This document shows positions 987 through 18,612 of a DNA stretch of 61,281 bases, piece after piece. Position numbers and translations under genes: made by a program. Below the pieces are notes generated by a model. It was not told where the DNA came from. It saw only the letters and a program-made list of their open reading frames with translations, and did not search any database. The stretch's first letter is position 1. Each line of letters opens with the position of its first letter. The stretch spans positions 1 through 61,281 of the forward strand of contig JAUQPG010000003.1 of assembly GCA_030550495.1 (NCBI GenBank), given 5' to 3'. The stretch comes from Candidatus Bipolaricaulota bacterium. GTDB taxonomy: Bacteria > Bipolaricaulota > Bipolaricaulia > RBG-16-55-9 > DRXL01.

Positions 987-2279
987 CTACACCAGCTCCA
1001 GAAAGAGCAGCTTGGGGTTCTCCAAGTAACTAATGATCTTCTTACAGAAGCGCGCCCCTACGTCCCCGTCTATGAGACGATGGTCGAACGAGAGCGACAC
1101 GTACATAATGTCGCGAATCACGATCTGGTCGTCCCTGACGACCGGACGCTTCTTGATCTCGTGGATCCCCAAGATTGCGACCTCGGGATAGTTAATGATG
1201 GGAGTAGCAAACAGCCCACCCAGAGCGCCCAAGCTCGTAATAGTGAAGGTGCCGCCTTGGAGATCTTGCAGGGCAATCTTACCCTCGCGCGCGGCTTTGG
1301 CCAGGCGCTCGATCTCGGCAGCGATCTCTAATATGCTCTTTCTGTCGGCATCTTTGATCACGGGGACGATCAGGCCGTTCTCAGTCGCCGTGGCGATCCC
1401 GATATTATAATATTTTTTAATGACGATCTCGCCCGTCGCTTCGTCTAATGACGCGTTGAGCATGGGCATCTCCTTGAGTGCGGCGACGCTCGCCTTCACG
1501 ATAAACGGCAAGTACGTGAGCTTGACGCCCTTCTGTTCAGCTAATGGCTTCATCTGCTCACGCAATTGAATGAGTTCGGTCATGTCGACTTCGTCGACGT
1601 ACGTGAAGTGCGCTGCTGTGCTCTTGGACTGACGCATGTGCTCAGCGATGCGCTTGCGAATTCCTCGCAAGGGGATGCGCTCCTCGCGTCGGTCGGTGAT
1701 GACGGCGCTCGGCGCGAACGCCGGAGCTGTAGGTTTCGGCGCGGGGGGAGGAGGCGGCGTCGGTTGTGGAGCAGTGCGTGCGGCCGCGAAGCGGCGCACA
1801 TCTTCATCGGTGACGCGCCCGCCGGGGCCAGTTCCTTGAATTTGCGATATATCGACACCAAGCTCGCGGGCGAGCTTGCGCGTCGCGGGGGTCGCGAGCA
1901 CCCGCTGCGCTGGAGCTGCTGTCGGAGGCGGCGGTGCCGTAACAGCCGTTGCCGCAGCTGTGGCAACAGGCTCCGGTTCAGGCTTCGGCTGGGGTGCGGC
2001 GACTGTGACGGGTTCACGCTTGGGTTCAGGCTTGGCTTCCCCGACTTCTTCAATAGTGACCAAGACCGCGCCGACCTTGACGACTTCGCCCTCCTGGGCG
2101 TGCAGCTTTAAAATCTTCCCAGCGCGTGGCGCGGGGATCTCGACCGTCGCTTTATCGGTCATCACTTCGACCATGGGCTGGTCTTCGCGCACGAAGTCTC
2201 CTTCTTTCACAAGCCATTTGACGATCTCGCCTTCGTGAATGCCTTCGCCGATATCGGGTAATTTAAATTCAAAGGGCAT
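987..2279 (-). CDS. dihydrolipoamide acyltransferase, E2 component of a 2-oxoacid (pyruvate or branched-chain) dehydrogenase complex
   Basis: N-terminal lipoyl domain (VEVMTDKATVEIPAP), Pro/Ala linkers, peripheral subunit-binding domain (ATPATRKLARELGVD), and a catalytic domain ending in SFDHRLIDG. GAAGGAG lies upstream of the ATG. Confidence 0.93.
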   Translation of the reverse strand: MPFEFKLPDIGEGIHEGEIVKWLVKEGDFVREDQPMVEVMTDKATVEIPAPRAGKILKLHAQEGEVVKVGAVLVTIEEVGEAKPEPKREPVTVAAPQPKPEPEPVATAAATAVTAPPPPTAAPAQRVLATPATRKLARELGVDISQIQGTGPGGRVTDEDVRRFAAARTAPQPTPPPPPAPKPTAPAFAPSAVITDRREERIPLRGIRKRIAEHMRQSKSTAAHFTYVDEVDMTELIQLREQMKPLAEQKGVKLTYLPFIVKASVAALKEMPMLNASLDEATGEIVIKKYYNIGIATATENGLIVPVIKDADRKSILEIAAEIERLAKAAREGKIALQDLQGGTFTITSLGALGGLFATPIINYPEVAILGIHEIKKRPVVRDDQIVIRDIMYVSLSFDHRLIDGDVGARFCKKIISYLENPKLLFLELV

Positions 2280-2354: not shown

Positions 2355-3701
2355 CTAGCGAGCTGTGACGAGAACCAAGAGAGTCCCTTCGTCATGCTCC
2401 AAAGCTGTGAGGGCTTTACCCAAAATGGCACCGTCGCACGCTGCAGGGCCGGCACAGCGCATCGCATAGCCGGGCCTCGACGAGCTCGTCAACAGATCTC
2501 CCGGACGGATTGGGCCGTTCTCGGTCGTCCCCTTAACCGGCACACGCCCCAGCAGCGTCAACAGCACTCGGACTTCAGTCAGTTGACGCGCCCCCAAGAT
2601 CAAGCCCGGCTGCGTCGCGATCACTCCAGCAACGAGCGTGCTATACGGCGTGCGCGCCTTGCGATAGTGCTTGGGGTGCTCTGGGTCAATCTCCACGACG
2701 TCTCTTGGCTCGACCGGCTCGGAAACTAAGATATATTCAGCGACGTCAGCCCCGCCCGCGTAGAAAGAGCCATCGGTGTAGACATTGCCTGTAGTGCGTT
2801 CTATCCGGAAGAGCGCCGGTGTATTATTGCTCGGCGCGAAGGGCGTATCGGTAGACCATTCTGGCCCTGGCGGTGATCCCCCATAGTTGCGCATCCCATT
2901 GCTGGGCCCGCCGCTGGCGCCTGATGAGTCATTGATAACATTCCCAGAGCCTTCGTCAAAGTGATAGAGCGCAACGGTGTTCGCATCGGGGGTAAACGGC
3001 GCCGTTGGCGGCGTGAAGTTCCCCGTGTAGCGTCGGATATTCGAGATGCGTAGCTCATCCAGCCAGCCCCTATACGACGGATATGCCGGGCCGGCGTCGT
3101 GCTTCTCGGCGCCCAAAACTAGGAACGGATCGCTGTTGGGATAGCTTGTCGGGCGTCCGTCTCGGTAGCTGACGTCGCGGTTGCTCCCGACGTTGCCAGG
3201 GCCGCAGACATCTTGTTGCCCGTCTACGAAAATACAGAGCTGCCCATCGCTGTAGCGCCGTGTTACGGCAACGTGATGCCATTGCCCATTGGTGACAGGT
3301 ATATTCCCACAGATCGTATTCCCGTTGCTCCCGTAGCTGACGCCGAACGCGATCTTGCCGTTGTTGAGAGAGATGCCGAAGTCGCCGTAGTCGCCCGGCC
3401 CCCAGATGTCGCGATCTATAATAATATTCCCAGTTATCCAGCCGTCGTTGGTGTTGCACGTGACGCTGCCGGTGTTGTCACCGGGATTGGCTTTCATCCA
3501 AAATTCAATAGTGAAATCAGTCGCACCAACATCGGCGGGCTTGTGCGGGTCTATCTGAATCTTGACGCGATCGATGTCATTGACCCCGTTGCCGTAAAAG
3601 CGCAAAGAATAGCCCACCTGCGAGAGCACCTCCACAGGAGAAGAGGCTCTCAATACAATCACAAGACCAATCACTATGACAGCAAATAGAGATTTCTTCA
3701 T
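2355..3701 (-). CDS. secreted LamG-like (concanavalin A-type lectin/glucanase fold) protein with a 151-aa C-terminal module shared with the 8617..10833 product
   Basis: Signal peptide [21 protein letters not shown]. LamG_3-like pattern (LRFYGNG...[11 protein letters not shown]...WHHVAVT...LDELRISN). C-terminal module [11 protein letters not shown]...GGADVAEY...[12 protein letters not shown]...[26 protein letters not shown]. Confidence 0.85.
2358..2810. repeat. dispersed coding repeat, copy 1 (C-terminal module); partner at 8620..9072
   Basis: Shared DNA strings such as gatcaagcccggctgcgtcgcgatcac and gcgcgccttgcgatagtgcttggggtgctctgg. The spurious plus-strand ORFs 2394..2729 and 8620..8895 also translate similarly. 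Confidence 0.85.
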
Positions 3702-3716
3702 AACTTTTATTGCCCG

Positions 3717-3745
3717 ATTTTAGCTTACCAGCGCACGCCTATCAA
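3717..3745 (-). promoter_or_regulatory. sigma70-type promoter for the LamG-like gene
   Basis: On the minus strand: TTGATA (3745..3740), 17-bp spacer, TAAAAT (3722..3717), 15 nt before the ATG at 3701. Confidence 0.45.
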
Positions 3746-4233
3746 ATCGAGCCAAGCCACATCCCTACCGTCACCGCCGGCTGCAGCCAGTACCACTCTC
3801 CAAAAGTAAAATTGACCTGCACGTAGATCGGAAGCGAGAAGAACTCTAGATTGTGACCGACCAGGAGCTTGAGATACGCTTGAGTCCAGATTCCCTGATC
3901 TCTCCCAGCCGTATCCTCCCAGCGCGCCCAGCCCAGCCCCGCCCCCAAATACGAGCTCTCTATGTGAAATACCAACGCCCCGTCCAGATAGAGCACCCAA
4001 TCGTCGGCACGAAGATCAGCCAGCACCGTGCCCTCTACAAGCAGGCCGGCCCAGCCGGAAGCCAGTTGCCCTCGCACTGCCCCTCCAAGAAACGAAAAGC
4101 TCACCGGGGCTAGCCCCCAGTAAAGCCCCGTGCCCACGCGCATCTCCGCCCCCTGCGCGCTCACCCACAAGAGAAAAAGAGCCAGGGCGCAGCTAAGAGC
4201 CACGCCCCGGCTTGCTCCCTTCAGCATATACAC
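3742..4233 (-). CDS. small secreted Gly/aromatic-rich, beta-strand-rich protein (possible membrane beta-barrel), unknown family
   Basis: Signal peptide (SCALALFLLWVSAQGAEM) followed by alternating hydrophobic pattern. Its start codon directly abuts the stop of the giant gene at 4234. Confidence 0.6.
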   Translation of the reverse strand: MYMLKGASRGVALSCALALFLLWVSAQGAEMRVGTGLYWGLAPVSFSFLGGAVRGQLASGWAGLLVEGTVLADLRADDWVLYLDGALVFHIESSYLGAGLGWARWEDTAGRDQGIWTQAYLKLLVGHNLEFFSLPIYVQVNFTFGEWYWLQPAVTVGMWLGSI

Positions 4234-7200
4234 CTAGCGCAGGATGACGACCTTCTGCACGGCGCTGCGCTCGATCCTATCGCTGCCCTTGATCGTGAGC
4301 ACAGCCAAGTAAACGCCGTTAGCAAGGAGACTGCCGTCTTGCGCGCGTCCGTACCAGATCACGCGCTGCCCAGGCACAAACTCCGAGCGATAGAGCACGC
4401 GCCCCTGCAGATCGTAGATCTCTACGCGCACCGCTTCAATGCCCTCGCCTTGCACTATGAAGCGTATGCTAGAGCGATCCATGCGCTCCAGAGCGATGCG
4501 CGTCACCCGCAAGGGCACAGACGCCGACTCTGCTGGGATACGATATGTCTGCACAATCGGATCGAGTCGGTCGCCATCGCCGTTGAGATCTTGTCCGTAG
4601 CTCGACTCGTAGACCCAGAACGCGATCAGGCCGTCGTAGATATCGGGTTCACTGCCGACGCGAGCTGTATTGAAGACCTGGCGCAGCTCGCGGTCATAGT
4701 ATCGGATCACGGTATCGGTGCGGTCGCCGTCGCCGTTGAGATCAGTATTCAGAGAAGCTTCATCGGTCTGGAAGACTACGTAGCGCCCGAAGATCGCGGG
4801 CCAGCTCCCGACAGCTTCGGTCTCTTCGACACGTCCTGTGGCGATCTCGTAGAGCCGAATGACTGGCCTCTTCTGAGCGCGATCAGGCGTGACGAAGGCC
4901 ACGATCCCGTCATATATAGCAGGCTGAGCGCCCTCAAGGCCCGTATCGCGCAGCTCGTGTCGTGTCAGATCATAGATTTGAATGGTGTTCGCCGGGCCGA
5001 CAAACGCGATGAACTTTTCCCAGATAGCGGGATCGCGCCCGGTGCCGAGCACTCTCACGGAGTTGCCGTCCCAGAGCGCGATCTGATCGGTATGCTCAAA
5101 GACTACGAACGCCCCATAGATCCCCGGATGAGATGCGGCGAAGTCGGTGCGCGTGAGCGCGCCCGTCGCGATATTATAGAGCCCAAGCTTCCCTTCAGGA
5201 CTGACGAACGCGACCGTGTGCTCATAGAGATCGAGATCTCGTGGCGCGCAGGAGACGAAGACCCCGGTATTGGTGATCAGGCCCGTTTGGAGATCGCGGA
5301 CGCGCAGCACGCAGTCGTTCAGACTCTTATTTCTGTTAAGATCGAGCTTCGGGCCGCGACCGAAGTGCTGCTCTGGCGCGGGGAAGACCATGAGCGTGCC
5401 CCAGATCGGGGGATCGCCGCCCAAGGGCCCTTCTATCGTTGTACCTTGCTGGCCTGTATTGTTATTGGGGTTGGGATCAGCCGTATCGCTGGAGACCTCT
5501 GCAGTATTGGTGATCGTCCCTGGCACAGTCGGCGTGACGACAATCGTGATCGTCGCCGAAGCCCCAGCATTGAGAGTCCCGAGATTGCATGTGACGACGT
5601 TGCCCACAGGAGGATTACAGCTTCCTTGGCTAGGCACAGCCGAGACGAACGTCACTCCCGCAGGTAACGTATCGGTGACGACGACGTTCGTCGCCGGAGA
5701 TGGCCCAGCATTGGTCACCGTGATGGTATATGTCAAGTTATCGCCGACAAGCACAGGGTCAGGATTATCAGTCTTGGATATGCTGAGATCAGCAGTGGCG
5801 AGTGGCTGCTGCAGCAGCGCGAACTGATAGCGATCCACCCCTGAGCCTGGAGGCGATTCGATGGCTCCGCCCTGCTCGGTTGGAGGATTGGGGTAATTAC
5901 CGTCGTATGCATAGATTCCAGAGATCGTTGTGGGGACGTCATGGACAGTTTGTGGCGTGCAGACTTGGAGAACGCCGCCGTTGGTGACAAATGCTTCGGT
6001 GATCTGGAAGTAGGTGCGCTCGCTGTTAATATTGAAGCCTGTAGGGCCATAGTTGCCATTGGGATCAGAAACTGCTGATGTGTACGAGCCAGCACATGGG
6101 GCGTTCTGATCTATCTGAACGGTGAGCCCTGTTATGGGATTATTGAACGCATCGACGACGCGCACGTACCCGTACCAATCTTGCTGGATACGTGCGAGGG
6201 CGTTATCGGGGCTCCAGGTGTTATTGGCGTTGATCGTGCTGAGATCTTCTGCAAGGGGAGTGTCCAGAGCGAAGATGCCGAAGCCGCCGTTGGCACCGAT
6301 CGTGTTGTTCTCGATGTTATAGGGTTGCGAGAGCACGTCATCGTTGGCTGAAGCAGGGGAGTCATTAGCGCCGAAGTAGACGAGTGCGAGGATACCGTTA
6401 GCAGCGTTTTGAGTGATCGTATTATTCTGGATAGACGGTGAAGAACCGATGAGTAAGATGCCCTCACCGTTGTTGTTCGTGATCTGATTTTCGCCGATGA
6501 CCGTGCCGCCGTTGTCGCGCCGGATGAAGATGCCCTCGTTATTGTTATTTTGAATGGTGTTCTGCAAGATCCAGGTATTGGCCGGCCCAGGGGTCGGGGG
6601 GCCAATCTGGGCGTCAGGGCCGGGGTAGTCATTGAGTACTGCTATCCCTAAACCATTGTTGATGATAATGTTCCCAAAGATCTCATTATTATCTGTGCCA
6701 GGGCCAATGACTTGAATCCCATCGTAGTAGTGATACTGAATGGTGTTATTGGGGCCGATGGTATTCTGAGATGCACCGTTGTTGATGACGACCCCAGCGT
6801 TATCGTAGCCTTGGCGCGGGACGACGTCTGTGCCGCCCTGGATCGTGTTGTTTCTGACGATATTGCCCGTCGTACCCACGCCGGAGATGAGCACATTCTG
6901 GTACTGATTGTAGCGAATAGTGTTCCCTTCGACGATATTGTTTGTCGCGCCGCCATAGATTGAGACCCCGGCGTTGCCGTTGGGAGCAGCAGTCACCCCA
7001 TCAGGGGTTCCGATGTAGCTATTGGCTACTATATTGTTACTTGTGCCGACGTCGCGCAGGAGCACGCCCTCTTGCGCGTTGTTATATATATAGTTTGCTT
7101 GAGGTATTTCACCAGAATCTACACCAATACAGACGTTTTGAGGGCCGTTGCTGCCCGCGGGCGTGCGTTCGATAAGGATCCCTTGAGCAGCGTTGCTATA

Positions 7201-8541
7201 GATGGAGTTTCCTGAGATGGAGACGCTGCCGCCAGCCAAATTGCACAGATTGGGGTCAACGCCAGTGACCGCGCCGGCGATCTGAATCCCGACACCGTCT
7301 CCGGCAAGAAAGCCGTTATTGTTTATAGTATTTTGATATATGCGCACGCCTTGAGGCGCGGTGTCGGTAGCAAAATCTTCGATGACGGTGACCCCGTTGC
7401 CACCGTTGCCTGTTATAGAGTTACCGTAGATGGTAATATTGCTGCTTGCGCCAACGACGATGACCCCGGAGCTGATCCCATCCTGGCCGTTAGAAGTTAT
7501 GATGTTGGACTGAATATTGATATCGCTGCTATCGCGGACGCTGACCCCAGCTCCTCCATTGTTGTTGATCGTATTCAAGGAAATATCAACAGATCCTGTG
7601 GCATTGCCTATGAAGATACCCAAGCCGTTGTTGCTGATATCATTTAATTGGATTATGCTTCCCCCGACGTTCCCCTGGAGTGTGATCCCTCCTACGGGGT
7701 TGTTCGTGATTGTAGATATAAACACACCAACAAACGGGGCAAGCGAGAAGATCGCTGGGCCGCCGGTGTTGCCATCGAGCGCTGAGTTCTGAATCTGGAC
7801 AAGGCCAGAGCTTGCGGCAATGGAGATGCCCCCGTTGCTGTTATTGTTGATAATGCAGTTTTGAATCGTGACATTTTGTGGGGCCACGTAAATTCCTGTG
7901 CCGCCGTTGGTGCTCACCGTGCAGTTAGAGATTTGAGTCGTGCTGGCAGAACCGTAGAGCGAGATCCCTGCGCCCCCGTTGTTGGTCACCGTGACGTTCG
8001 TAATAGTTGTGACGTTTGCTGGGCTGTCCACGCCTATGCCGACGTTGGGATTACCCGTAACAGTAATGCCGTCGAGCGTAGCTGCGGCAGCACTCGTATT
8101 GATGACGACGGCCACACCCCCGGCCCCAGCATTGGTGATCGTGATCGGGCCTTGTATAGTTATCCCCGACGTATCAAGCACAATAGGGTACTGCTCCCCG
8201 TTGGCGTTGATAGTAATCCCGGTATTGAGGGCCCAAGCATCAATAGTCGTATTGGTCTCGTTGCCGATCCAGAGGCTCCCTAGATTAAGCGTGATCGTCG
8301 TGCCGTCGAGGCTGGCATCAAAGACGATAGTGTCCCCAGGGGCGCCATTGAAGTTAGCCACGAGAATAGCTTCGCGCAACGAGCAGTCATTATTCCCCGG
8401 AGGGGGACAATCCGTCCAAGGATCGTTAACCACGTCTGCGTTCGTGGTGACAGTGATCGTCCAGGGTTGGGCGATCGCGGGCAGGGTAGAGACAGAGAGA
8501 CCCAGAAGAACACTCCAAAGAAGGAGACCCACTCTTGCCAT
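4234..8541 (-). CDS. giant secreted surface protein: CSLREA N-terminal motif, long parallel beta-helix (PbH1-type) region, DUF11-type repeat domain, beta-propeller-like repeats with DxDGDxD loops, FlgD-Ig/T9SS-type C-terminal beta-sandwich
   Basis: The start is moved to the third ATG ([26 protein letters not shown]) because GGAGG lies 5 nt upstream of it. Motifs seen: [13 protein letters not shown]; many N-N-G-G-x-G-I coils; [41 protein letters not shown]. Repeated P-x-I-[YFW]-x-x-[FIV]-[VI]-[AV]-F units, [10 protein letters not shown] and [10 protein letters not shown] loops. The tail is [14 protein letters not shown]...[11 protein letters not shown]. Confidence 0.9.
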
Positions 8542-8571
8542 AAAAGCCTCCATCTCTTTTTTAAGCATTTT

Positions 8572-8600
8572 ATGTTAGCATTCTAATTATCGAAAGTCAA
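8572..8600 (-). promoter_or_regulatory. possible promoter for the giant surface-protein gene
   Basis: AT-rich gap. On the minus strand: TTGACT (8600..8595), 17-bp spacer, TAACAT (8577..8572), then a roughly 30-nt leader with GGAGG. Confidence 0.4.
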
Positions 8601-8616
8601 GAGTCTAAGATTTAAG

Positions 8617-10833
8617 CTAGTGGACAATAAGAAGCGCCTGAATGATTCCCGATTCACTATCCAATGCTGTGAGTGCCTTGCCCAAGAGAGCACCCTCGCA
8701 CTGCCGGGCATTCTCGCAGCGCATGGCGTACCCTATCTTAGACGAGCTTGTCAGCAGATCTCCAGGGCGGATCGGGCCATTCTCGGTCGTGGCCTTCGCC
8801 CACACCCGCCCCAGCAAGGCAAGCAACGCTTGCGACTCTCTGGCCTCCCGTGCGCCCAAGATCAAGCCCGGCTGCGTCGCGATCACCCCTGCTAGCAGCC
8901 GACTGTACGGCGCGCGCGCCTTGCGATAGTGCTTGGGGTGCTCTGGATCAATCTCGATCACATCCCCTAGCTCGACAGGCTCGGAGACTAGGACATACTC
9001 AGCGACGTCGGCCCCGCCTCCAAAGAACGTCCCATCAGCGTAGACATTGCCCGTCGCGCGCTCCACCCGAAAGAGCGCCGCTGTGTTGCATATTCCGGCG
9101 AAGAAACATTGCAAAAGAGCTTCGGCGGGCTTATTGTGCGGCGTGTAGGACGTATCGGTCGGGCCGCCTTGGTTAGGATCTGTCTCCCAAACCCAAATGA
9201 ACAGCCCCTGCATCCAAGAGAGATCGCGCACTACTGTAAAGAGAGCTTGATAGCAATCGGCTTGCTCTTGCAGATCTACAGGGCCTAGGGTCTGCCAATC
9301 CCACGGGGCCATGTTGGCGCCGTCTACACTGCGATAGCCCACTTCTGTAAAGATAATGGGCTTATTCCATTGCTGGCTCAACGCTTGAAGCTGAGCTAAC
9401 GGCGCCTGCCAGCCGGCAATCAGCTCTGCTATGGTGGGATTGGTCTTGTTCGTCAGAGGGTAATACGCATCAACGCCGATAAGATCGAGGGCATCCCAAA
9501 ACTGAATTGTCGTGTATTCAGTTGGGGGATTGGCAGCATAGACCAAAGGGCCGCTGTAGACGGCCCGCACGGCAGCAATAATCTGACGCCATTGGGCCTC
9601 GCGATGGGTCGTCCCCTGCAGCTCAGTCCCTACACAGAACTGATCAACGCCGTGGGCTTGGGCAAGCTGCGCATAGTGCACAATAAAGCTCTGATACGAC
9701 GCAAACCATGCAGCCCATGCAGCCTCATCGCTGCCGAAGTTGATATCCCCGCGCCAATGATTTGGGTCGCTATTGAGATCAACGTGGGGCTTGAGCATGA
9801 CTTTCAGGCCCAAGATCTTTGCTTTCTGAATAGCGTGAATGAGATCGGCATCAGTAGGGGTGCGGGAGTCAGTCAGACATTGAATCTGTGTCGACGAGAC
9901 GGTCTCTTGATAGCACGTCACGATGAGGCTGACCCATGTAGCTCCGGTAGCAGCGAGCTCTTCCAGGGCTTGATCGGCGGCGGGGCTGGAGTACTGATCG
10001 CGCCACCACGCCGCGAACGAGATCCCGCGTTGCCACTGGGCGGACTGCGTGCACGATTGCATCCATGCGTCAAGACCGCGGTGCTTGAGAATAGCGCTGA
10101 ATCCTAGGGCGTTGGCTTGGGGACAGAATTGCTCGAGCGTCATGCCCTCTTCAGTGTACTCTATCGCGAAGACGGCCTTGCCCGCTTGGATGAACGGCGT
10201 CATCTGATCGCACCAGCCGTACTTGAAACAGCTCTCGACTAAAGCCCACTCGAAGTACGGCAGAAGATCGGGCACTTGGTCGGGATCGTTCTTCAGCCCG
10301 ATGGAGAGCCCTCGGGCGTGTGCTTCGTTGGCAAGCCAAATGTTGTACGCGAGCTGATCTTGATAGGTCAAGGGGAAGCCCGTATTGTTCTGGTACCCGT
10401 CGAGATTGTCGGGATCAACACCGTCAAATCCCTTGGCTTTGCACAAGTCCAAGCGAGCGCGCATGATCGGCGCTAGGAGATCAATCCGGCGGATGTCGAG
10501 CCAGCGCTCGCCGGGCCAGCCCTCATAAGGATTCCCTAAGACTTCAGGAGGGAACTGATCGGCATCCGGACGCCACTCCTCCCACGCCCCAGCATTGATA
10601 TAACAGATCACTTTGCGCCCCTGGGCATGCAAAGCAGCCACGAGGCTCGCGTCGGTGTCGAACATATCAATATCGTAGACCTGAACGTCAAAAGACTGAT
10701 CTACGGGCAGACCTGTGAACTGAATTTGCCAAGTCGTTCCCGGTGCAGGCGTCCAAAACCCACTTTGAGCGAGCGAAGCGCCATGCGCTATCAGCCAGAT
10801 GAGTCCCAGCAGACTAAGGGCAATGATACGCAT
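8617..10833 (-). CDS. secreted two-domain glycosidase: GH114-type endo-alpha-1,4-polygalactosaminidase-like domain plus a clan GH-A-like TIM-barrel domain, ending in the shared 151-aa C-terminal module
   Basis: Signal peptide MRIIALSLLGLIWLIAHGASLAQ. The GH114 pattern is VICYINAGAWEEWRPD...GWPGERWLDIR...KGFDGVDPDNLDGYQN...GLSIGLKND...AVFAIEY. The second domain has VGTELQG and IIFTEVGY, candidate acid/base and nucleophile Glu motifs. The C-terminal module is FRVERATGNVY... Confidence 0.88.
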   Translation of the reverse strand: MRIIALSLLGLIWLIAHGASLAQSGFWTPAPGTTWQIQFTGLPVDQSFDVQVYDIDMFDTDASLVAALHAQGRKVICYINAGAWEEWRPDADQFPPEVLGNPYEGWPGERWLDIRRIDLLAPIMRARLDLCKAKGFDGVDPDNLDGYQNNTGFPLTYQDQLAYNIWLANEAHARGLSIGLKNDPDQVPDLLPYFEWALVESCFKYGWCDQMTPFIQAGKAVFAIEYTEEGMTLEQFCPQANALGFSAILKHRGLDAWMQSCTQSAQWQRGISFAAWWRDQYSSPAADQALEELAATGATWVSLIVTCYQETVSSTQIQCLTDSRTPTDADLIHAIQKAKILGLKVMLKPHVDLNSDPNHWRGDINFGSDEAAWAAWFASYQSFIVHYAQLAQAHGVDQFCVGTELQGTTHREAQWRQIIAAVRAVYSGPLVYAANPPTEYTTIQFWDALDLIGVDAYYPLTNKTNPTIAELIAGWQAPLAQLQALSQQWNKPIIFTEVGYRSVDGANMAPWDWQTLGPVDLQEQADCYQALFTVVRDLSWMQGLFIWVWETDPNQGGPTDTSYTPHNKPAEALLQCFFAGICNTAALFRVERATGNVYADGTFFGGGADVAEYVLVSEPVELGDVIEIDPEHPKHYRKARAPYSRLLAGVIATQPGLILGAREARESQALLALLGRVWAKATTENGPIRPGDLLTSSSKIGYAMRCENARQCEGALLGKALTALDSESGIIQALLIVH
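8620..9072. repeat. dispersed coding repeat, copy 2 (C-terminal module); partner at 2358..2810
   Basis: By my manual protein alignment, 107 of 151 positions are identical to copy 1. Blocks of near-identical DNA are present. Confidence 0.85.
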
Positions 10834-10852
10834 CGTTACCCCCTTCTCATAC

Positions 10853-11521
10853 TTATTCCAAGCCCACCATGAGCTGCACGATCCAGCCGTTGAAGTTTGC
10901 TGGCGGTCCCTTGAGGGCGCGACCCTCCTGATCCCATGCGCCGTTGTCGAACGTCAGCGTGTAGCCCGCCGAGAGCGTGAGCATGAGCGTAATGGGCTCG
11001 TCGAGCTTGAATGTGAGCAAGGGGAATCGCACGCCCAGCTGCGGGCTGACGGTGAAGAACCAACGTGTAAAGAAAGCCCCTGCAGGGCTGCTGAGGGCTT
11101 CAGCGAAGCTCGCAGGACGATGATCGAGCACCGTGAGGCTCGCGATCCCCACTCCTAGCGTAAGGTTGACAAACGACCCCAGGGGAAGCCGAGGGAGAGC
11201 ACGCTCCCCCGATCCCCCAAACCATGTCAAGGTCAGTTTCGTCAGCTTCTCGTCACTCTTGGCCACAGCATCGCCGTGCCAATTAGCGATATTGAGGTTC
11301 CACCCTCTCAACACGATCGTGTTCTGCCCGCCCCAGATAAAACAGCTCTCCGGCAGCGTAGGATAGCCTTGAGCCTCCAAGAGCTGATTGAGCTCAGACA
11401 TGTTCCAGAAAACCCAGCCGAATTGTAGTGTGCTCCAACCGCGCCGTTGTTCTTCCTGGCCTACCGCACCACACGCCCAGCCAACGACCACCAGAAAGAC
11501 AAACACAAGAACGCGCGCCAT
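10853..11521 (-). CDS. secreted beta-rich protein of unknown family (222 aa)
   Basis: Signal peptide MARVLVFVFLVVVGWACGAVGQ. It is tightly packed between the S9 peptidase (11-nt gap) and the glycosidase (19-nt gap). Confidence 0.6.
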   Translation of the reverse strand: MARVLVFVFLVVVGWACGAVGQEEQRRGWSTLQFGWVFWNMSELNQLLEAQGYPTLPESCFIWGGQNTIVLRGWNLNIANWHGDAVAKSDEKLTKLTLTWFGGSGERALPRLPLGSFVNLTLGVGIASLTVLDHRPASFAEALSSPAGAFFTRWFFTVSPQLGVRFPLLTFKLDEPITLMLTLSAGYTLTFDNGAWDQEGRALKGPPANFNGWIVQLMVGLE

Positions 11522-11532
11522 GTCAGACCTCC

Positions 11533-13512
11533 TTAGAGATTTTCGATCGGCACCGGCTCAACGGAGTCGGCGATTGCAAAGCCAAAGACTTTCGCGTAAA
11601 AGTACAGCTCGGCTTCGAGCGATCTTTTGATATTTTCGGCTTTGCGGAAGCCGTGCTGCTCCCCCTCAAATGCCATGTACGCCACGGGGATGCCCTTCCC
11701 GCGCAGCGCTTCGACCATCATTTCAGATTGACTTGGAGGAACTACTCTGTCTTCTAAGCCCTGGAAGAAGATCACCGGACAAGAAATCTGATCAGCGAAG
11801 TGAATGGGCGAGCGCGCATAGTACAGATCGCGCCGCTCGGGATACGGCCCAATGAGACTTCTATTGTAGCGTGACTCGAACTTGTGCGTGTCTGTATCTA
11901 ACGCTTCAAGATCGCTCACGCCGAAGTAGCTCGCCCCGGCTTTGAAGAACTTTCTGAAGGTGAGCGCGCAGAGCGTCGTGTACCCGCCGGCGCTGCCGCC
12001 GCGAATCGCGACGCGCTCGCCGTCTACTAGCCCACGATTCACTAAATACTTGGCAGCGTTGACGCAGTCGTCGACGTCGACGACACCCCACTGGCCCCTC
12101 AGTCGCTCTCTATATTCTCGGCCGTAGCCGGTGCTGCCCCCATAGTTGACGTCGACGACCGCGAAGCCGCGGCTCGTCCAGAACTGAATCTCTAATCTCA
12201 GTGTCGCCGTGGTAGCACTTGTTGGTCCGCCGTGGCTGAAGACTAAGAGCGGGGGCTTCTCGCCCGGCGGGGCTTGGAAGTCTTTGTTTTTCGGAGCGTA
12301 GAAGAACGCATAGGCGGTCTTGCCCCCTTCGGTAGGAAACTCGATGGGCTGCGCAACCGAGAGATACCCCTCGTCAATCTGAAGATCGCTAGAACGCCGC
12401 AGCACTTCAAATTTTTTCTCTTTGAGGTCGAGCCGGACAATCGAGAGCATCTCTGTGGGCGAGCCGCCGCGAAAGACCACACAGTGAGCATGAGCGCGCA
12501 CGTAGCTGATATCAGTGTAGGGCGTCTCGATGGGCTCGAGCTTCTTTGTCACTGTGTCCAGGCGCGCTAGGCGCCACATCCCGTTCTGAGTGTACGCGCA
12601 GACGAGCTCGCGCTCGGAGAGGAATGCATACGTCGACATGCCGAAGCCCCACTGGGGCTGGCCGAACTCGGCTTCGAGCTGGGTGAGGCCCTCACCCCCG
12701 CCCCCTCTCCCGTCTAGAACGGGAGAGGGGTGCCGCAGGCGAGGTGAGGGCCACTGCCAACGATAGATGTTCCACCAACCCGTTCTATCCGAGACAAAAT
12801 AGAGCGTGCCGTCGGGGGACCATTCGGGCTGGAAGATAGATTCCGTCGGGCCACCCGCGACCTTCTGGGCGTTTTTCACTGAGCCGTCACCAGCGATCTC
12901 CGCGACCCAGAGCTCCGTGCCGTCCCAGGGCATGTTGGGGTGATTCCATGTGAGCCACGCGAGCTTGGTGCCATCGGGACTTAATCTGGGCGAAGCGTAA
13001 AAGTCATTGCCGGAGACGAGCACGGTGCCACCATCGGGATCGCCGTCGAGCTTCACGCTCACAATAGTATTGACGGCTTCGCGCCCGGCAACAGTGTGAT
13101 CTTCGCGGACGCAGATCAAGCGATTTCGCCGAGCGTCAATAACAGCGTCAGCATAGCGCAATGCTTTCTCTGGGGTGATGGGCTGTGGGGCAGCACCGGG
13201 CTTCTGCACATAGAGTCGCTGATCTTTGAAGTTCGAGAAATAGACAGTGCCGTTATGGACGCAGAAATCGCCGCCGCCGTACTCGTGCACCGTTGTGCGG
13301 GCGTAGAACGGCGCGGGCGTGATGTCGCTCACCGTGCCGTCGGGAGATCTCTTGACGATGACATAGCGTCCAGCTTCGGCGGGGCGCGATTCGAGCCAGT
13401 AGATATCTTCTCCGTCGAGGACGACCTGCATCAGGCGCACCGCGCCGCGGGCGATTATGTCTGCGGTGATCGGCGACTTCCACGAACCGTAGGGGGCAAT
13501 CATAGGGGTCAT
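11533..13512 (-). CDS. S9-family serine peptidase (prolyl oligopeptidase / acylaminoacyl-peptidase type) with an N-terminal beta-propeller
   Basis: C-terminal alpha/beta hydrolase with GGSAGGYTT nucleophile elbow and EGEQHGF. A propeller region lies upstream. GGAGG precedes the ATG. Confidence 0.9.
12687..12752. repeat. REP-like nested palindrome, copy A, located inside the S9 peptidase reading frame
   Basis: Sequence: GGCCCTCACCCCCGCCCCCTCTCCCGTCTAGAACGGGAGAGGGGTGCCGCAGGCGAGGTGAGGGCC. Outer 10-bp stem and inner perfect 12-bp stem. It is 66 bp long and in frame. Confidence 0.85.
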
Positions 13513-14034: not shown

Positions 14035-15483
14035 TTACGCTCGCGCTGGTTCCTTTCTCTTAGGCATGAGAATATGTATCGCCTTGCCCAGTGCAGCTTC
14101 GGCAGCCTCCATCAGCCCCTCCGGCAGCGTCGGATGCGGATGAATGCTTAAAGCTAGATCTTCCAACGTCGCCCCCATCTCGATTGCTAAGACGGCTTCA
14201 CTGATGAGCGTCGAGGCTTCAGGACCAACGATCTGCACGCCGAGCACGAGCTTGGTCTCCGCGTCAGCAATAATCTTAATAAACCCATCGGTCTCGCCCA
14301 GCGTCAGCGCCCGCCCCAGCGCCGCAAACGGGAATTTCCCAACTATCGTCTTATAGCCTGCTTGCTGGGCTTCAGCTTCGCTCAGCCCCGCGTAGGCGAT
14401 CTCCGGGTCGGTAAAGATCACCGCGGGCACGGTCTGCCAATCGGCCGCGCTCGCAAGCCCACAGATCGCCTCCGCCGCAACGATCCCCTCGTGAGACGCC
14501 TTGTGCGCCAAAAGCGGCGGCCCCGCAACGTCCCCAATCGCGTAGATATGCGGGACGCTCGTGCGCATCTGCTTGTCCGTCTTGAGAAAGCCCTTGGGAT
14601 CAGGCTGCAGACCCAATCTCTCTAAACCCAGCTCTGGCGGCGTGTTTGGCTTGCGCCCGACACTGACTAGAACTTTTTCGGCTTCAAGGCTCTTCTCGCC
14701 GTCAGGCGTCTGAATGACAAGCTGCGCCCCGTCCTTACTCTTCTTCAGCTCTTTCGCTTGGGACTTGAGATAGATGTCCATCTGTAGTTCTTTGGCTTTC
14801 CGAGCAACAAGGCGCGTCAGCTCTGGATCAGTTCCAGGCAAGAGGTTCTCCAACATCTCGACGACCGTGACCTTGCTGCCAAACTTGGCATAGACCATCC
14901 CCAGCTCCACCCCGATATAGCCACCCCCAATCACGATGAGCGATTGGGGAAGCTTTTTGAGCGCAAGCGCGCCGGTAGAGTCTATGACGACCTCGCCGTC
15001 GATCTCAAAGTCGGGGAGGGTCATGGGCACGGACCCCGTCGCAATGATACAATCTTTGAACTCAATCGTTTGATTGCCGTGCTCACCCTCGACCAAGCAC
15101 TTCTTCGGCGAGATGAATGTCGCCTTGCCCTTAATCACATTGACACCGTTGCCCTTACAGAGCTGCTCGACACCTCCCGTGAGCCTCTTGACGACGCTCT
15201 CTTTCCACGCCTGTAAGCGCTCGATATCGAGCTGAACGTCCTGCACAGAGATCCCAAACGTATCGGCACGCTTGATCTTCTCGTAGAGATACGACGCGTA
15301 GATCAGGGCTTTCGAGGGGATGCACCCAACGTTCAAGCACGTGCCGCCCAGCTCGTCTTTCTCGACAAGGGTGACGTCCTTGCCCAGCTGAGCTGCTCGA
15401 ATAGCCGCAACGTATCCACCCGGACCACCCCCTACGACTAAGACCTCGGTACCGATAGTGATCTCGCCCACGACCATAAACAA
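14035..15483 (-). CDS. lpdA: dihydrolipoyl dehydrogenase (E3)
   Basis: GGGPGGYVAAIRAAQLGK, redox-active GGTCLNVGCIPSKAL, and a C-terminal dimerisation domain with HPHPTLPE. The start may be the TTG at 15483 or the ATG at 15477. Confidence 0.95.
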   Translation of the reverse strand: MFMVVGEITIGTEVLVVGGGPGGYVAAIRAAQLGKDVTLVEKDELGGTCLNVGCIPSKALIYASYLYEKIKRADTFGISVQDVQLDIERLQAWKESVVKRLTGGVEQLCKGNGVNVIKGKATFISPKKCLVEGEHGNQTIEFKDCIIATGSVPMTLPDFEIDGEVVIDSTGALALKKLPQSLIVIGGGYIGVELGMVYAKFGSKVTVVEMLENLLPGTDPELTRLVARKAKELQMDIYLKSQAKELKKSKDGAQLVIQTPDGEKSLEAEKVLVSVGRKPNTPPELGLERLGLQPDPKGFLKTDKQMRTSVPHIYAIGDVAGPPLLAHKASHEGIVAAEAICGLASAADWQTVPAVIFTDPEIAYAGLSEAEAQQAGYKTIVGKFPFAALGRALTLGETDGFIKIIADAETKLVLGVQIVGPEASTLISEAVLAIEMGATLEDLALSIHPHPTLPEGLMEAAEAALGKAIHILMPKRKEPARA

Positions 15484-15537: not shown

Positions 15538-16509
15538 TCAAAAGCTCAACACCTTCTCTATGCCCTTCTTCACCCGTCCGGCATCGGGCAGATAGTACTG
15601 CTCCATCGTGAGATAGGGGATGTGCGTATCATAGCCCGTTACGCGCACCACCGGGGCTTGCAACTGCAAGAGCAAGCGCTCGTTAATTAGCGCTATGAGC
15701 TCCGACGCCAAACTACACGTGCGTGGAGCTTCCTGAACGATCACAGCGCGCCCGGTCTTGGCCACCGAAGTGAGCACAGTCTCTATGTCCAATGGCTTGA
15801 GCGTGCGCAGGTCAATCAGCTCAACGCTGATGCCCTCAAGCTGCTCGATTGCTTGCAGACAGACCCTCACCATCGCCCCCCAGGTGATCACCGTGACGTC
15901 GGTGCCCTCCCGCACAAGAGATGCCTTCCCAATAGGCACGGTGTAGTCGCCCTCGGGGACTTCTTGGCGAAACGCGCGATAGAGTCGCTTGGGCTCGAAG
16001 AAGATCACGGGATCGGGGTCGCGAATCGCTGAGATGAGCAACCCCTTAGCGTCGTAAGGATTCGACGGGATGACGACTTTCAAGCCAGGCGTGTGAACAT
16101 AATACGCTTCCGGGGCTTCGGAGTGATGCTCCAGAGCTCGGATACCGCCACCATAGGGCACTCGAATGACGATGGGCACGTGAAAGCGTCCGCGCGACCT
16201 CCAGCGGATGCGCGCCGCGTGCGAGATGATCTGATCGAACGCTGGGGCCATAAACCCATCAAACTGGATCTCCGCAACGGGCTTCAGCCCATTAATGGCC
16301 ATCCCAATCGCTGTACCCACGATCCCCGACTCGGCTAATGGCGTATCAATAGCGCGATCCGGCCCAAATTCTTGATAGAGCCCCTCGGTCGCGCGGAAGA
16401 CGCCGCCGTTGACGCCCACATCCTCCCCCATGACGATAACCGTTGGATCGCGGCGCATCTCCGTCTTCAGAGCGTCGTTGATCGCCTGAACAAGCGTCAT
16501 CTGCGGCAT
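15538..16509 (-). CDS. 2-oxoacid dehydrogenase E1 component, beta subunit (copy 2 of a tandem pair)
   Basis: Transketolase-like pyrimidine-binding and C-terminal domains. Collinear with the preceding gene and about three quarters or more identical to it by eye. Confidence 0.93.
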   Translation of the reverse strand: MPQMTLVQAINDALKTEMRRDPTVIVMGEDVGVNGGVFRATEGLYQEFGPDRAIDTPLAESGIVGTAIGMAINGLKPVAEIQFDGFMAPAFDQIISHAARIRWRSRGRFHVPIVIRVPYGGGIRALEHHSEAPEAYYVHTPGLKVVIPSNPYDAKGLLISAIRDPDPVIFFEPKRLYRAFRQEVPEGDYTVPIGKASLVREGTDVTVITWGAMVRVCLQAIEQLEGISVELIDLRTLKPLDIETVLTSVAKTGRAVIVQEAPRTCSLASELIALINERLLLQLQAPVVRVTGYDTHIPYLTMEQYYLPDAGRVKKGIEKVLSF

Positions 16510-16522
16510 AGGTATCCCTCTC

Positions 16523-17500
16523 TCAGTAGCTGAGCACTTTTTCTATCCCCTTCAGACAGCGCCCGACGTCGGGCAGATAATAGTCTTCTAGACGCGCCTG
16601 GGGAATGAACGTATCGAAGCCCGTCACGCGCACGATTGGCGCTTGCAAATACTCAAAAGCTTTGTCATTGACCAGGGCAGCAAGCTCTGCCCCAAACCCG
16701 CACGTTCGCGGCGCTTCATGCAGGATCACGACCCGCCCCGTCTTCTTCACCGACTCGATCACCGTCTCGACATCTAAGGGGACAATCGTGCGCAGATCGA
16801 TCACTTCGACGCTGACGTTCTGGGCAGCCATCTTCTCCGCAGCCCCCAGGGCAACCGGGATCATCGCGCCCCATGCGATGAGCGTCACGTGGGAGCCTTC
16901 ATGGGCGATGCGTGCCTTCCCGATGGGAACGATATAATCCCCTTCGGGGACCTCGGCACGGAACGCACGGTAAAGCCGTTTCGGCTCCAAATAGATAACG
17001 GGGTCGGGATCACGGATCGCCGCGATCAGAAGCCCTTTCGCATCATAGGGGTTTGACGGGATAACGACTTTTAAGCCCGGGGTATGGGCATAATACGCTT
17101 CAGGGCTCTCAGAATGGTACTCTGGGGCGCGAATACCCCCACCGTAGGGGGCACGGATCACGATGGGCACGTGAAACCGCCCGCGTGATCTCCAGCAAAT
17201 CCGCGCCGCGTGCGAGATGATCTGATCGAACGCGGGAGGTAGAAACCCATCGAATTGAATCTCCGCGACGGGCTTGAGCCCATTAATGGCCATCCCGATT
17301 GCTGTGCCGACGATCCCCGCTTCAGATAGAGGGGTATCAATCGAGCGATCCGGCCCAAATTCTTTATAGAGATTCTCTGTGACTCGGAAGACGCCGCCGT
17401 TGACGCCGACGTCCTCCCCCATCACGACCACCGTGGGGTCACGGCGCATCTCCGTCCTGAGCGCGTCGTTGATCGCCTGGACAATATTCAGTTGGGGCAT
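16523..17500 (-). CDS. 2-oxoacid dehydrogenase E1 component, beta subunit (copy 1 of a tandem pair)
   Basis: MPQLNIVQAINDALRTEMRRDPTVVVMGEDVG... Starts 2 nt after the E1 alpha stop. Confidence 0.93.
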   Translation of the reverse strand: MPQLNIVQAINDALRTEMRRDPTVVVMGEDVGVNGGVFRVTENLYKEFGPDRSIDTPLSEAGIVGTAIGMAINGLKPVAEIQFDGFLPPAFDQIISHAARICWRSRGRFHVPIVIRAPYGGGIRAPEYHSESPEAYYAHTPGLKVVIPSNPYDAKGLLIAAIRDPDPVIYLEPKRLYRAFRAEVPEGDYIVPIGKARIAHEGSHVTLIAWGAMIPVALGAAEKMAAQNVSVEVIDLRTIVPLDVETVIESVKKTGRVVILHEAPRTCGFGAELAALVNDKAFEYLQAPIVRVTGFDTFIPQARLEDYYLPDVGRCLKGIEKVLSY

Positions 17501-17502
17501 GG

Positions 17503-18612
17503 TTACTCGTGCGGCAGGTCGCCGCCGTGCTCAGCTAAGTAGTCTTTCAGCTCTTGGAGCTGTTCTTTGAGATTCCACGGCATCTCGGCGTACATGTACT
17601 TGAAGATATCTTCGACATCGCGCTTAGGGAGCGCTTCATATTGCGCAACGGCTTGCGCGATCTCGGCCTTAGCCTCCTCTAAGAGCTTCGCTTCGTCTTG
17701 TTCGCTCCAGAGCCCTTGCTTCTCCAAATAGAGTCTTAAGCGCTTGATCGGATCTTTCTGCTTCCACATCTCGACTTCTTCAGCAGGGCGGTAGCGCGTC
17801 CAGTCGTCAGCCGTCGTGTGATGCGTCAAGCGATACGTGACGGCCTCGATCAAGGTTGGGCCGCCGCCGGCGCGCGCCTTCTCCAGCGCGTCACGAGTCA
17901 CTTTATAGACCGCGAAGACATCGTTGCCATCGACTTGGACGCCTTCAAACCCATAGGCGAGAGCCTTCTGAGCGAGCGTCTCGGAAGCTGTTTGTCTAGT
18001 GCGCGGCACGGAGATCGCGTATTGATTATTTTGACAGAAGAAGACCACCGGGACCTTAAAGACTCCCGCGAAATTCAGCCCCTCGTGGAAGTCGCCCTCA
18101 GAGGTCGCGCCGTCGCCGAAGTAGACGATCGCACAAGATTTTTCGCCCTTGAGCTTAGCAGCCCAAGCCGCCCCGGTGGCGTGCAAGATCTGCGTGGCGA
18201 TGGGGACACAGATCATGAAATTTCTCATCCCCTCCGGGATGCGGTTGCCCTCTTCATTGCCGCCCCAATACGTAAAGAGCTGGAGCCAGCTCTGCCCGCG
18301 CATAGCGAGCACCGCGTGCTCACGATAGCTGGGGAAGACCCAGTCTTCAGGCTTGAGCGCATAGGCACTGCCCACTTGGGCTGCTTCTTGCCCAAGAAGA
18401 GGCGCATACGTGCCCAAGCGCCCTTGTCTCTGTAATGCCAAGGCGCGCTCGTCGAACGTGCGCGCCAGTACCATCCAGCGATAGAGGGCCTTAAAATCAT
18501 GGGGCTTCAATCCCAACTCGACGACGTCGTTGGGGTTGGCCATGCCGTCAGGCCCCAGAATCTGAATAAACGGGACGAGCGATTCACGCTGCAGAGTCAC
18601 TTTAGCTGCCAT
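17503..18612 (-). CDS. 2-oxoacid dehydrogenase E1 component, alpha subunit (thiamine diphosphate-dependent)
   Basis: TPP-binding region YFGDGATSEGDFHEGLNFA. AAGGAGGGAG precedes the ATG. Overlaps the lipA end by 11 nt. Confidence 0.93.
   Translation of the reverse strand: MAAKVTLQRESLVPFIQILGPDGMANPNDVVELGLKPHDFKALYRWMVLARTFDERALALQRQGRLGTYAPLLGQEAAQVGSAYALKPEDWVFPSYREHAVLAMRGQSWLQLFTYWGGNEEGNRIPEGMRNFMICVPIATQILHATGAAWAAKLKGEKSCAIVYFGDGATSEGDFHEGLNFAGVFKVPVVFFCQNNQYAISVPRTRQTASETLAQKALAYGFEGVQVDGNDVFAVYKVTRDALEKARAGGGPTLIEAVTYRLTHHTTADDWTRYRPAEEVEMWKQKDPIKRLRLYLEKQGLWSEQDEAKLLEEAKAEIAQAVAQYEALPKRDVEDIFKYMYAEMPWNLKEQLQELKDYLAEHGGDLPHE

Follow-up and report, generated by a model that had tools for sequence, protein, structure and literature searches.

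The window considered here, the whole 61,281-nucleotide stretch of contig JAUQPG010000003.1 (assembly GCA_030550495.1) from a Candidatus Bipolaricaulota bacterium, codes for two exported proteins, a LamG-like protein and a GH114+GH113 glycosidase, that carry closely related modules at their C-termini. Comparisons at the profile and fold level support placing this module in a compact, divergent 'mini-G2' branch of the Peptidase_G2 superfamily that is missed by current models. We lean towards the view that a compact G2-superfamily domain has been recruited onto Sec-exported cellular proteins, where it probably trimerises and cleaves itself outside the cell. The two genes (carriers), the domains preceding the module (passengers) and the module copies are listed below; the copies were delimited by BLASTP, tblastn and a 44-sequence family alignment (A1), which is also the source of the profile and structure model described later, and the signal-peptide-like N-termini were recognised by reading the sequence, with no predictor.

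2355..3701, reverse strand: LamG carrier gene (carrier 1), 448 amino acids (aa), with a signal-peptide-like N-terminus.
3621..3701, reverse strand: Sec-type signal-peptide-like N-terminus of carrier 1.
3039..3536, reverse strand: LamG/concanavalin-like passenger domain of carrier 1, residues 56-221 (PF13385, E 1.5e-11).
2358..2825, reverse strand: module copy 1, residues 293-448 of the LamG protein.
8617..10833, reverse strand: GH114+GH113 glycosidase gene (carrier 2), 738 aa, with a signal-peptide-like N-terminus.
10768..10833, reverse strand: Sec-type signal-peptide-like N-terminus of carrier 2, MRIIALSLLGLIWLIAHGASLA|Q.
9130..10734, reverse strand: GH114 (residues 34-257) and GH113 (residues 278-568) passenger domains of carrier 2 (Pfam scan: PF03537, E 1.2e-90, and PF22612, E 1.3e-81, respectively).
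8620..9087, reverse strand: module copy 2, residues 583-738 of the GH114+GH113 protein.

A preliminary description, made from the sequence alone, had proposed that the two proteins share a C-terminal module of 151 aa and are otherwise unrelated, and both statements hold. The C-terminal 151 residues are identical at 107 of 151 positions, exactly as counted there, and the BLASTP match at the C-termini of both carriers reaches 113/158 (72%, E 4e-73); outside the module BLASTP finds no significant similarity between the LamG protein and the glycosidase, the other matching segments being noise. Once the conserved strand upstream of the predicted cleavage site is counted in, the module is about 156 aa long, copy 1 being made up of a conserved 21-residue pre-cleavage strand and a 130-aa G2-like beta domain. 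A tblastn search of the 61-kb window found no third copy. The 453 nucleotides (nt) of module DNA are 71.7% identical, with 79%, 83% and 53% identity at codon positions 1, 2 and 3 respectively, a pattern that indicates purifying selection on the module protein, the similarity having been held at the protein level.

Against this background, two blocks of DNA stand out as identical between the copies:

2652..2684 = 8914..8946, no strand assigned: 33-nt identical block coding for 11 residues, a candidate short gene-conversion tract.
2593..2624 = 8855..8886, no strand assigned: 32-nt identical block coding for 11 residues, a candidate short gene-conversion tract.

Near-identical DNA had already been remarked upon in the preliminary description, and both strings quoted there are found at both sites (2598/8860 and 2652/8914). 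Under a null of background divergence between the copies, with simulations that included a codon-column shuffle, one identical run of this length has a probability of about 0.001-0.005, and two were never seen in 20,000 simulations. Every relative has at least 3-4 mismatches inside both blocks. The module copies lie 6.26 kb apart in the same orientation. As the two runs exceed chance and their counterparts in relatives differ, the simplest reading of the blocks, and a likely one, is gene conversion over short tracts between the two copies within the genome.

Searches with single modules were uninformative as to family. The Pfam scan that had been proposed at the outset, here run together with NCBIfam, gave nothing for either module at E <= 10, the searches against PHROGs and the PDB returned noise (best matches eS28, E 0.69, and phrog_5279, E 0.31), and tblastn of the module against 50,697 phage genomes found no match. 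A homologue search recovered 95 proteins, mostly fragments from Bipolaricaulota/Acetothermia metagenome bins, with N-terminal parts that include GH113, subtilase, galactose-oxidase E-set and NIDO-like domains; more distant homologues are 255-aa proteins with an Mtd_N tail-fibre N-terminus. The A1 profile, searched against the PDB with hmmsearch, matches PBCV-1 protein P22 (8h2i_cU, E 5e-7) and the C-terminal fragment of the Bacillus phage phi29 protein gp12 (3gqh_A, E 0.004). Aligned by hhalign with nine canonical G2 domains (alignment A4: phi29, Nf, SPbetaL3, phi105, two Staphylococcus phages, Cobetia Carin1, P-SSP10 and S-SM2), A1 gives a match of 97.2% probability (E 2.9e-11, 146 columns) that spans the whole module, from the pre-cleavage strand through the last strand. 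The preliminary guess of a Peptidase_G2-type intramolecular chaperone (IMC) autocleavage domain is thus supported at the profile level. Matches to the Pfam Peptidase_G2 model (PF11962), all below its gathering cutoff of 25 bits and reported as E values without bit scores, occur in 16 of the 44 A1 members (best E 5.7e-5) and in 7 of 60 close cluster representatives (best E 1.9e-7). The other family named at the outset, Peptidase_S74 (PF13884), is not supported, as there is no Pfam match at E <= 10 and the modelled module, being almost entirely beta, belongs to a different fold class.

The AlphaFold2 model built on A1 (pLDDT 91.3, pTM 0.82) is almost all beta. A Foldseek search of the PDB ranks premature gp12 (3SUC; E 6e-4, query TM-score, TMq, 0.66) first and 3gqh_A third; the root-mean-square deviation to these gp12 matches is high (8-10 A) because the module is without an insert that is found in canonical G2 domains. 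A search of BFVD yields 78 matches at E <= 1e-3, of which the best reach TMq 0.75-0.79 at 25-30% identity; proteins named as preneck appendage, tail fibre and Mtd_N-domain protein are among the matches. As modelled, the module shares the fold of the gp12 C-terminal domain.

The alignment also places a strictly conserved motif at the position where gp12 is cut:

2736..2750, reverse strand: ADVAE motif of copy 1, A318-D319-V-A-E322, predicted scissile bond A318|D319 (translation and alignment).
8998..9012, reverse strand: ADVAE motif of copy 2, A608-D609-V-A-E612, predicted scissile bond A608|D609 (translation and alignment).

Columns D27, A29 and E30 of A1 (A-D-x-A-E) are invariant in all 44 sequences, as are G67, P73, G93, G109, L112, G119, G136 and K137, and the D, A and E of the motif are invariant across 30 genome-derived carriers as well. 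The three motif columns align with D692, A694 and E695 of phi29 gp12, residues 1 (D) and 4 (E) of the 3gqh_A chain falling on D27 and E30; the phi29 gene 12 translation reads N-T-W-S691-D692-F-A-E695 at this point, and the crystallised fragment starts at D692. Residues D692 and E695 are reportedly catalytic in gp12 (Xiang et al. 2009; MEROPS). Since the invariant A-D-V-A-E aligns with S691|D692-F-A-E695 of phi29, we infer that cleavage of the module would take place at GGA|DVAEY. Mature virions of phi29 have been shown to lack the IMC domain of gp12 (PMC9863714). Further afield, D-x-A-E is present in 200 of 225 domain copies from the 144 closest cluster representatives, and in two-copy proteins the passenger-proximal copy keeps it in 78 of 81 cases, while the last copy is without a detectable motif in 22 of 144 (counts made with a simple regular expression and hence approximate). 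Within the close, Bipolaricaulota clade, C124 and C130 are nearly invariant, a pair that may form an extracytoplasmic disulfide.

The family to which the module belongs is very large. An exhaustive profile search retrieved 32,363 cluster representatives (50% identity) at E 1e-3, 26,681 at E 1e-10 and 13,869 at E 1e-30, so that the lineage-specificity suggested early on must be abandoned in favour of a family found across phyla and phages. A pattern-seeded scan of GTDB species genomes with a narrower alignment (A2) confirmed 154 sites, the best of them in Bipolaricaulota, Acetothermia and 'Fraserbacteria' bins, with further sites in candidate phyla radiation (CPR) phyla, Elusimicrobiota, Omnitrophota, Planctomycetota, Bacteroidota and some archaea; several bins hold 2-4 or more carriers, and both this count and that of the sites are lower bounds. 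In the 33 closest loci there is always a single module copy at the C-terminus, followed by 0-2 residues (the exception being the frameshifted L028), and most complete carriers begin with signal-peptide-like sequences. Passengers, surveyed in the carriers of the closest loci and in 60 close cluster representatives, are proteases (Peptidase_S8 (6+6), C10, M12B, M6, C39-like), glycosidases (GH113, GH114, GH9) and a range of others (GSDH, LamG, PQQ propellers, H_lectin, NIDO, galactose-oxidase-like, CBM96, beta-helix), such that the module is found on at least 20 kinds of exoprotein. Two tandem modules occur in 77 of the 144 closest representatives, and giant proteins (>1800 aa) of CPR/Patescibacteria have an internal module with the motif GGADLAEYY, followed by 300-580 residues.

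Comparison of orthologous carriers shows that passengers are 85-92% identical at the aa level and modules 68-76%, and DNA identity at the passenger/module boundary falls from about 82% to about 72%. Whole-cassette swapping between orthologous carriers was considered and rejected, the drop in DNA identity being modest and faster protein evolution explaining most of the difference; the low constraint on the module is as expected of a disposable pro-domain. Between paralogues there are signs that the module behaves as a recombining cassette. The module of the LamG carrier at locus L011 (4001-4459) is 93% identical to that of the GH114 carrier at locus L008 (4001-4459), in a related bin from the same hot-spring series, which suggests conversion, concerted evolution or cassette exchange in that lineage. 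Taken with the identical blocks in the window, this match indicates that paralogous modules are, in all likelihood, occasionally homogenised. At a third locus, L002 (213-3018), a GH113-module gene stands directly upstream of the gene for component E2 of a 2-oxoacid dehydrogenase; missing there are the three genes that separate the two in the window, which code for the beta-helix protein, the 163-aa protein and the LamG carrier. A deletion by module-to-module recombination would yield this arrangement.

How might such a domain act on an exported protein? The analysis shows that the modules are paralogous, homologous to G2 and of the same fold, that their motif is conserved, and that in a chromosomal setting they sit on varied passengers with export signals; trimerisation, cleavage, the cleavage site and the later fate of the released fragment we infer. 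The signal peptide would carry an unfolded precursor across the membrane by the Sec route, after which the C-terminal module would fold outside the cell, probably as a trimer like its phage relatives, with the conserved Cys pair possibly forming a disulfide in the Bipolaricaulota clade. The invariant Asp and Glu of A-D-x-A-E would then cut the bond just before the Asp (GGA|DVAEY), and a C-terminal fragment of 130 residues (~14 kDa) would separate from the mature lectin or enzyme, the passenger retaining a conserved tail of about 21 residues, FR(I/V)ER.TGNVY.DG.F..GGA.

Several observations weigh against self-cleavage by a trimerising G2 domain. As to family, the module is without the ~50-residue insert that canonical G2 domains have between GVIS..VLG and LLGQIxVR, every relative examined individually misses the PF11962 cutoff (17.2 and 17.6 bits), and the window modules do not match this model even at E <= 10. 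As to function, cleavage and oligomerisation are putative for every member of the compact subfamily, being argued from the phage relatives. The passengers (LamG, GH114+GH113, S8, GSDH and others) are globular and not trimeric beta-helix fibres, which would leave a trimerising chaperone without an obvious client; one of the PDB matches, 3GQK, is reportedly the phi29 fragment crystallised with ATP, which would be unavailable outside the cell. Finally, the presence of one C-terminal domain on many exoproteins is also the classic signature of an anchoring or sorting domain, and in lineages with internal or tandem modules cleavage would fragment the protein.

These points bear directly on the strongest alternative, which we regard as somewhat unlikely though well worth weighing: the G2-homologous domain is retained as a trimerising or surface-attachment knob, akin to the beta-tulip decoration proteins, with D-x-A-E playing a structural part, and it would either join enzyme molecules in threes or fix them to the envelope or S-layer of the cell. 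The remaining PDB matches of the model are to trimeric capsid cement/decoration proteins (Pam3, BB1, Sf11, HFTV1, XM1 and TW1; TM 0.43-0.60), 3SUC itself has been noted as a structural homologue of the beta-tulip protein gp87 (review, PMC7602432), and some family members match, weakly, the minor capsid protein family PF23982 (XM1_gp53). Occurrence on so many kinds of exoprotein, with several carriers per metagenome-assembled genome (MAG), is typical of anchoring domains, internal and tandem copies in CPR and other lineages are readily accommodated, and a retained knob calls neither for a folding client among globular passengers nor for extracellular ATP. Against retention stand the strict conservation of D-x-A-E exactly at the gp12 cleavage position and a module that evolves faster than its passengers; moreover, no envelope-binding motif was found, and among 34 loci no gene family recurs beside the carriers across differing contexts, the only shared neighbourhoods being those of orthologous synteny.

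With regard to the related families, the cleavage-motif region of the carrier at locus L070, from an Aenigmatarchaeota genome (residues 105-151 of the excerpt scanned), reaches the gathering score of DUF5046 (PF16465; 25 bits). Both DUF5046 and PF23982 may be related to the module superfamily.

The two other alternatives fit poorly. A C-terminal sorting or secretion signal for a dedicated machine, comparable to the C-terminal domain (CTD) of the type IX secretion system (T9SS), PEP-CTERM or LPXTG, would explain why paralogous copies of the module end several signal-peptide proteins of one genome; it is nonetheless improbable, given that no Pfam/NCBIfam sorting domain (T9SS CTD, PEP-CTERM, LPXTG, SLH and similar) is matched, that the 34 loci hold no recurrent partner gene, that family members occur in phages, giant viruses, CPR, archaea and many phyla, often at internal positions, and that the module, with its 156 aa and a conserved motif of catalytic type, far exceeds known sorting tags in size. 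Least credible of all is a prophage or tailocin origin, in which the two genes would be chromosomal leftovers coding for receptor-binding proteins (tail spikes of the depolymerase type). Among characterised proteins, those of phage tails are indeed nearest to the module, and phage depolymerases can contain GH domains; yet the two carriers begin with Sec-type sequences and show no N-terminal virion-attachment domain in a Pfam scan, the synteny is kept across several MAGs, and the 50,697 phage genomes yield nothing to tblastn with the module.

Among characterised systems, the module is closest to the Peptidase_G2 domain (PF11962; MEROPS G2) of the phi29 gp12 pre-neck appendage (3GQH, 3GQK, 3SUC), which is likewise C-terminal and beta-rich and has the same order of motifs: pre-cleavage strand, [small]-D-x-A-E, xGVIS, PGxxLG, LLGxxxV and a hydrophobic last strand. 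The module differs in lacking the insert between GVIS..LG and LLGQ, and in having invariant motifs of its own (PGDLL, PGYAM and GKAL). Whereas the gp12 domain sits on a trimeric beta-helix tail spike assembled in the cytoplasm, the module sits on Sec-exported globular enzymes and lectins coded in the chromosome, and would have to act outside the cell. In a few relatives (P0002, P0005, P0008, P0010 and P0013) the loop that holds the canonical insert is occupied by low-complexity inserts of 20-60 residues (e.g. ...GEGRGEVEPGE..., ...PLPSEGEGSRGVRGLGKGAGGLG...); these look like translated repeat elements that may be tolerated there.

The compact subfamily also takes in short phage tail-fibre proteins with an N-terminal Mtd_N domain (PF18454) and, from BFVD, Caudovirales proteins that are uncharacterised; their C-terminal domains are 29-34% identical to the window module (TMq 0.72-0.79) and have the motif Y-A-D-V-A-E. 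Unlike the carriers, they have a fibre or collagen-like stalk as passenger and no signal peptide, and lie on viral contigs. Peptidase_S74/CIMCD (endosialidase, K5 lyase, T5 pb1) and the MYRF ICA domain embody the same concept, a C-terminal, self-cutting, trimerising chaperone, in an unrelated fold with a Ser-Lys dyad, in contrast to the almost all-beta module with no S74 match; with MYRF, an IMC domain of phages has already been taken over by eukaryotic cells (PMC8326128). The beta-tulip decoration/cement proteins (lambda gpD, P74-26 gp87, TW1 gp56, XM1 gp53), which are usually trimers, have their fold class in common with the module but show no D-x-A-E and no cleavage, and bind capsids, so the likeness lies at the fold level only.

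Searches of the literature on Peptidase_G2 and on Bipolaricaulota exoproteins found no paper on the module. The kind of domain is known, as Peptidase_G2; what is new is a compact subfamily that Pfam/NCBIfam miss despite its >30,000 clusters, the systematic attachment of its members to chromosomally coded enzymes and lectins that cells export by Sec, and the hints of cassette-like recombination. It appears that bacteria have put a device of phage assembly to new use on their everyday exoenzymes. If the domain does cleave itself outside the cell, it would be the first phi29-type (G2) chaperone to serve ordinary cellular secreted enzymes, in parallel to the S74-type MYRF, and would account for the maturation or display of a large share of the exoenzymes in a phylum about which little is understood; annotators could then name a domain that occurs in more than 30,000 protein clusters and escapes current models. 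Protein engineers, too, could make good use of a C-terminal tag that is small, needs no ATP and removes itself. Were the domain retained instead, it would mark a new surface-display or oligomerisation domain. More tentatively, and with less confidence than we attach to self-cleavage as such, it is possible that in Bipolaricaulota and several largely uncultured phyla a phage-derived, self-cleaving, trimerising mini-G2 serves as a general C-terminal cassette for exoprotein maturation that spreads between genes by recombination. Proteases, glycosidases and lectins would then be assembled or tethered after Sec export and released autocatalytically, which would constitute a novel type of system for processing exoproteins, built on a domain family that is very large and has gone unannotated.

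The setting of the carriers is chromosomal, and the DNA is related to hot-spring MAGs, as judged from synteny shared with several bins. The carriers lie in an exported-protein block of about 11 kb (2355-13512) that splits a 2-oxoacid dehydrogenase set, with E1 and E3 on one side and E2 on the other:

987..2279, reverse strand: E2.
3742..4233, reverse strand: 163-aa signal-peptide protein, directly preceding the LamG carrier; no Pfam match.
4234..8568, reverse strand: 1444-aa beta-helix/NosD/DUF11 protein, in the exported-protein block.
10853..11521, reverse strand: 222-aa signal-peptide protein, directly preceding the GH carrier; no Pfam match.
11533..13512, reverse strand: S9 peptidase, in the exported-protein block.
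14035..15483, reverse strand: E3.
15538..16509 and 16523..17500, reverse strand: two adjacent E1 beta genes.
17503..18612, reverse strand: 2-oxoacid dehydrogenase E1 alpha.

No phage genes were seen around the carriers in the window. This agrees with what had been said of the region at the outset, and the neighbours - the dehydrogenase E1, E2 and E3 genes, the S9 peptidase and other housekeeping genes - are a further argument against a prophage remnant. The S9 peptidase, the GH passenger and the 1444-aa protein are 87%, 85% and 78% identical at the aa level to their L008 counterparts, the LamG passenger is 92% identical to that of L011, and E2 is 85-86% identical to those of L002 and L001.

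The 163-aa and 222-aa proteins were considered as a paralogous pair of partners for the carriers that they precede, and the idea was rejected, as they are unrelated to each other. The 163-aa protein is kept beside the LamG carrier in L011 (65% identity), and a homologue of the 222-aa protein (38% identity) precedes another carrier, LamG-GSDH-module, in L001. The 1444-aa protein ends in an FlgD_ig/CHU_C-like domain of about 75 aa (a weak match, E 0.006-0.01), which tblastn locates again near the N-terminus of the module carriers at loci L018 and L027, and in L005; it is a second small domain shuffled among these exoproteins.

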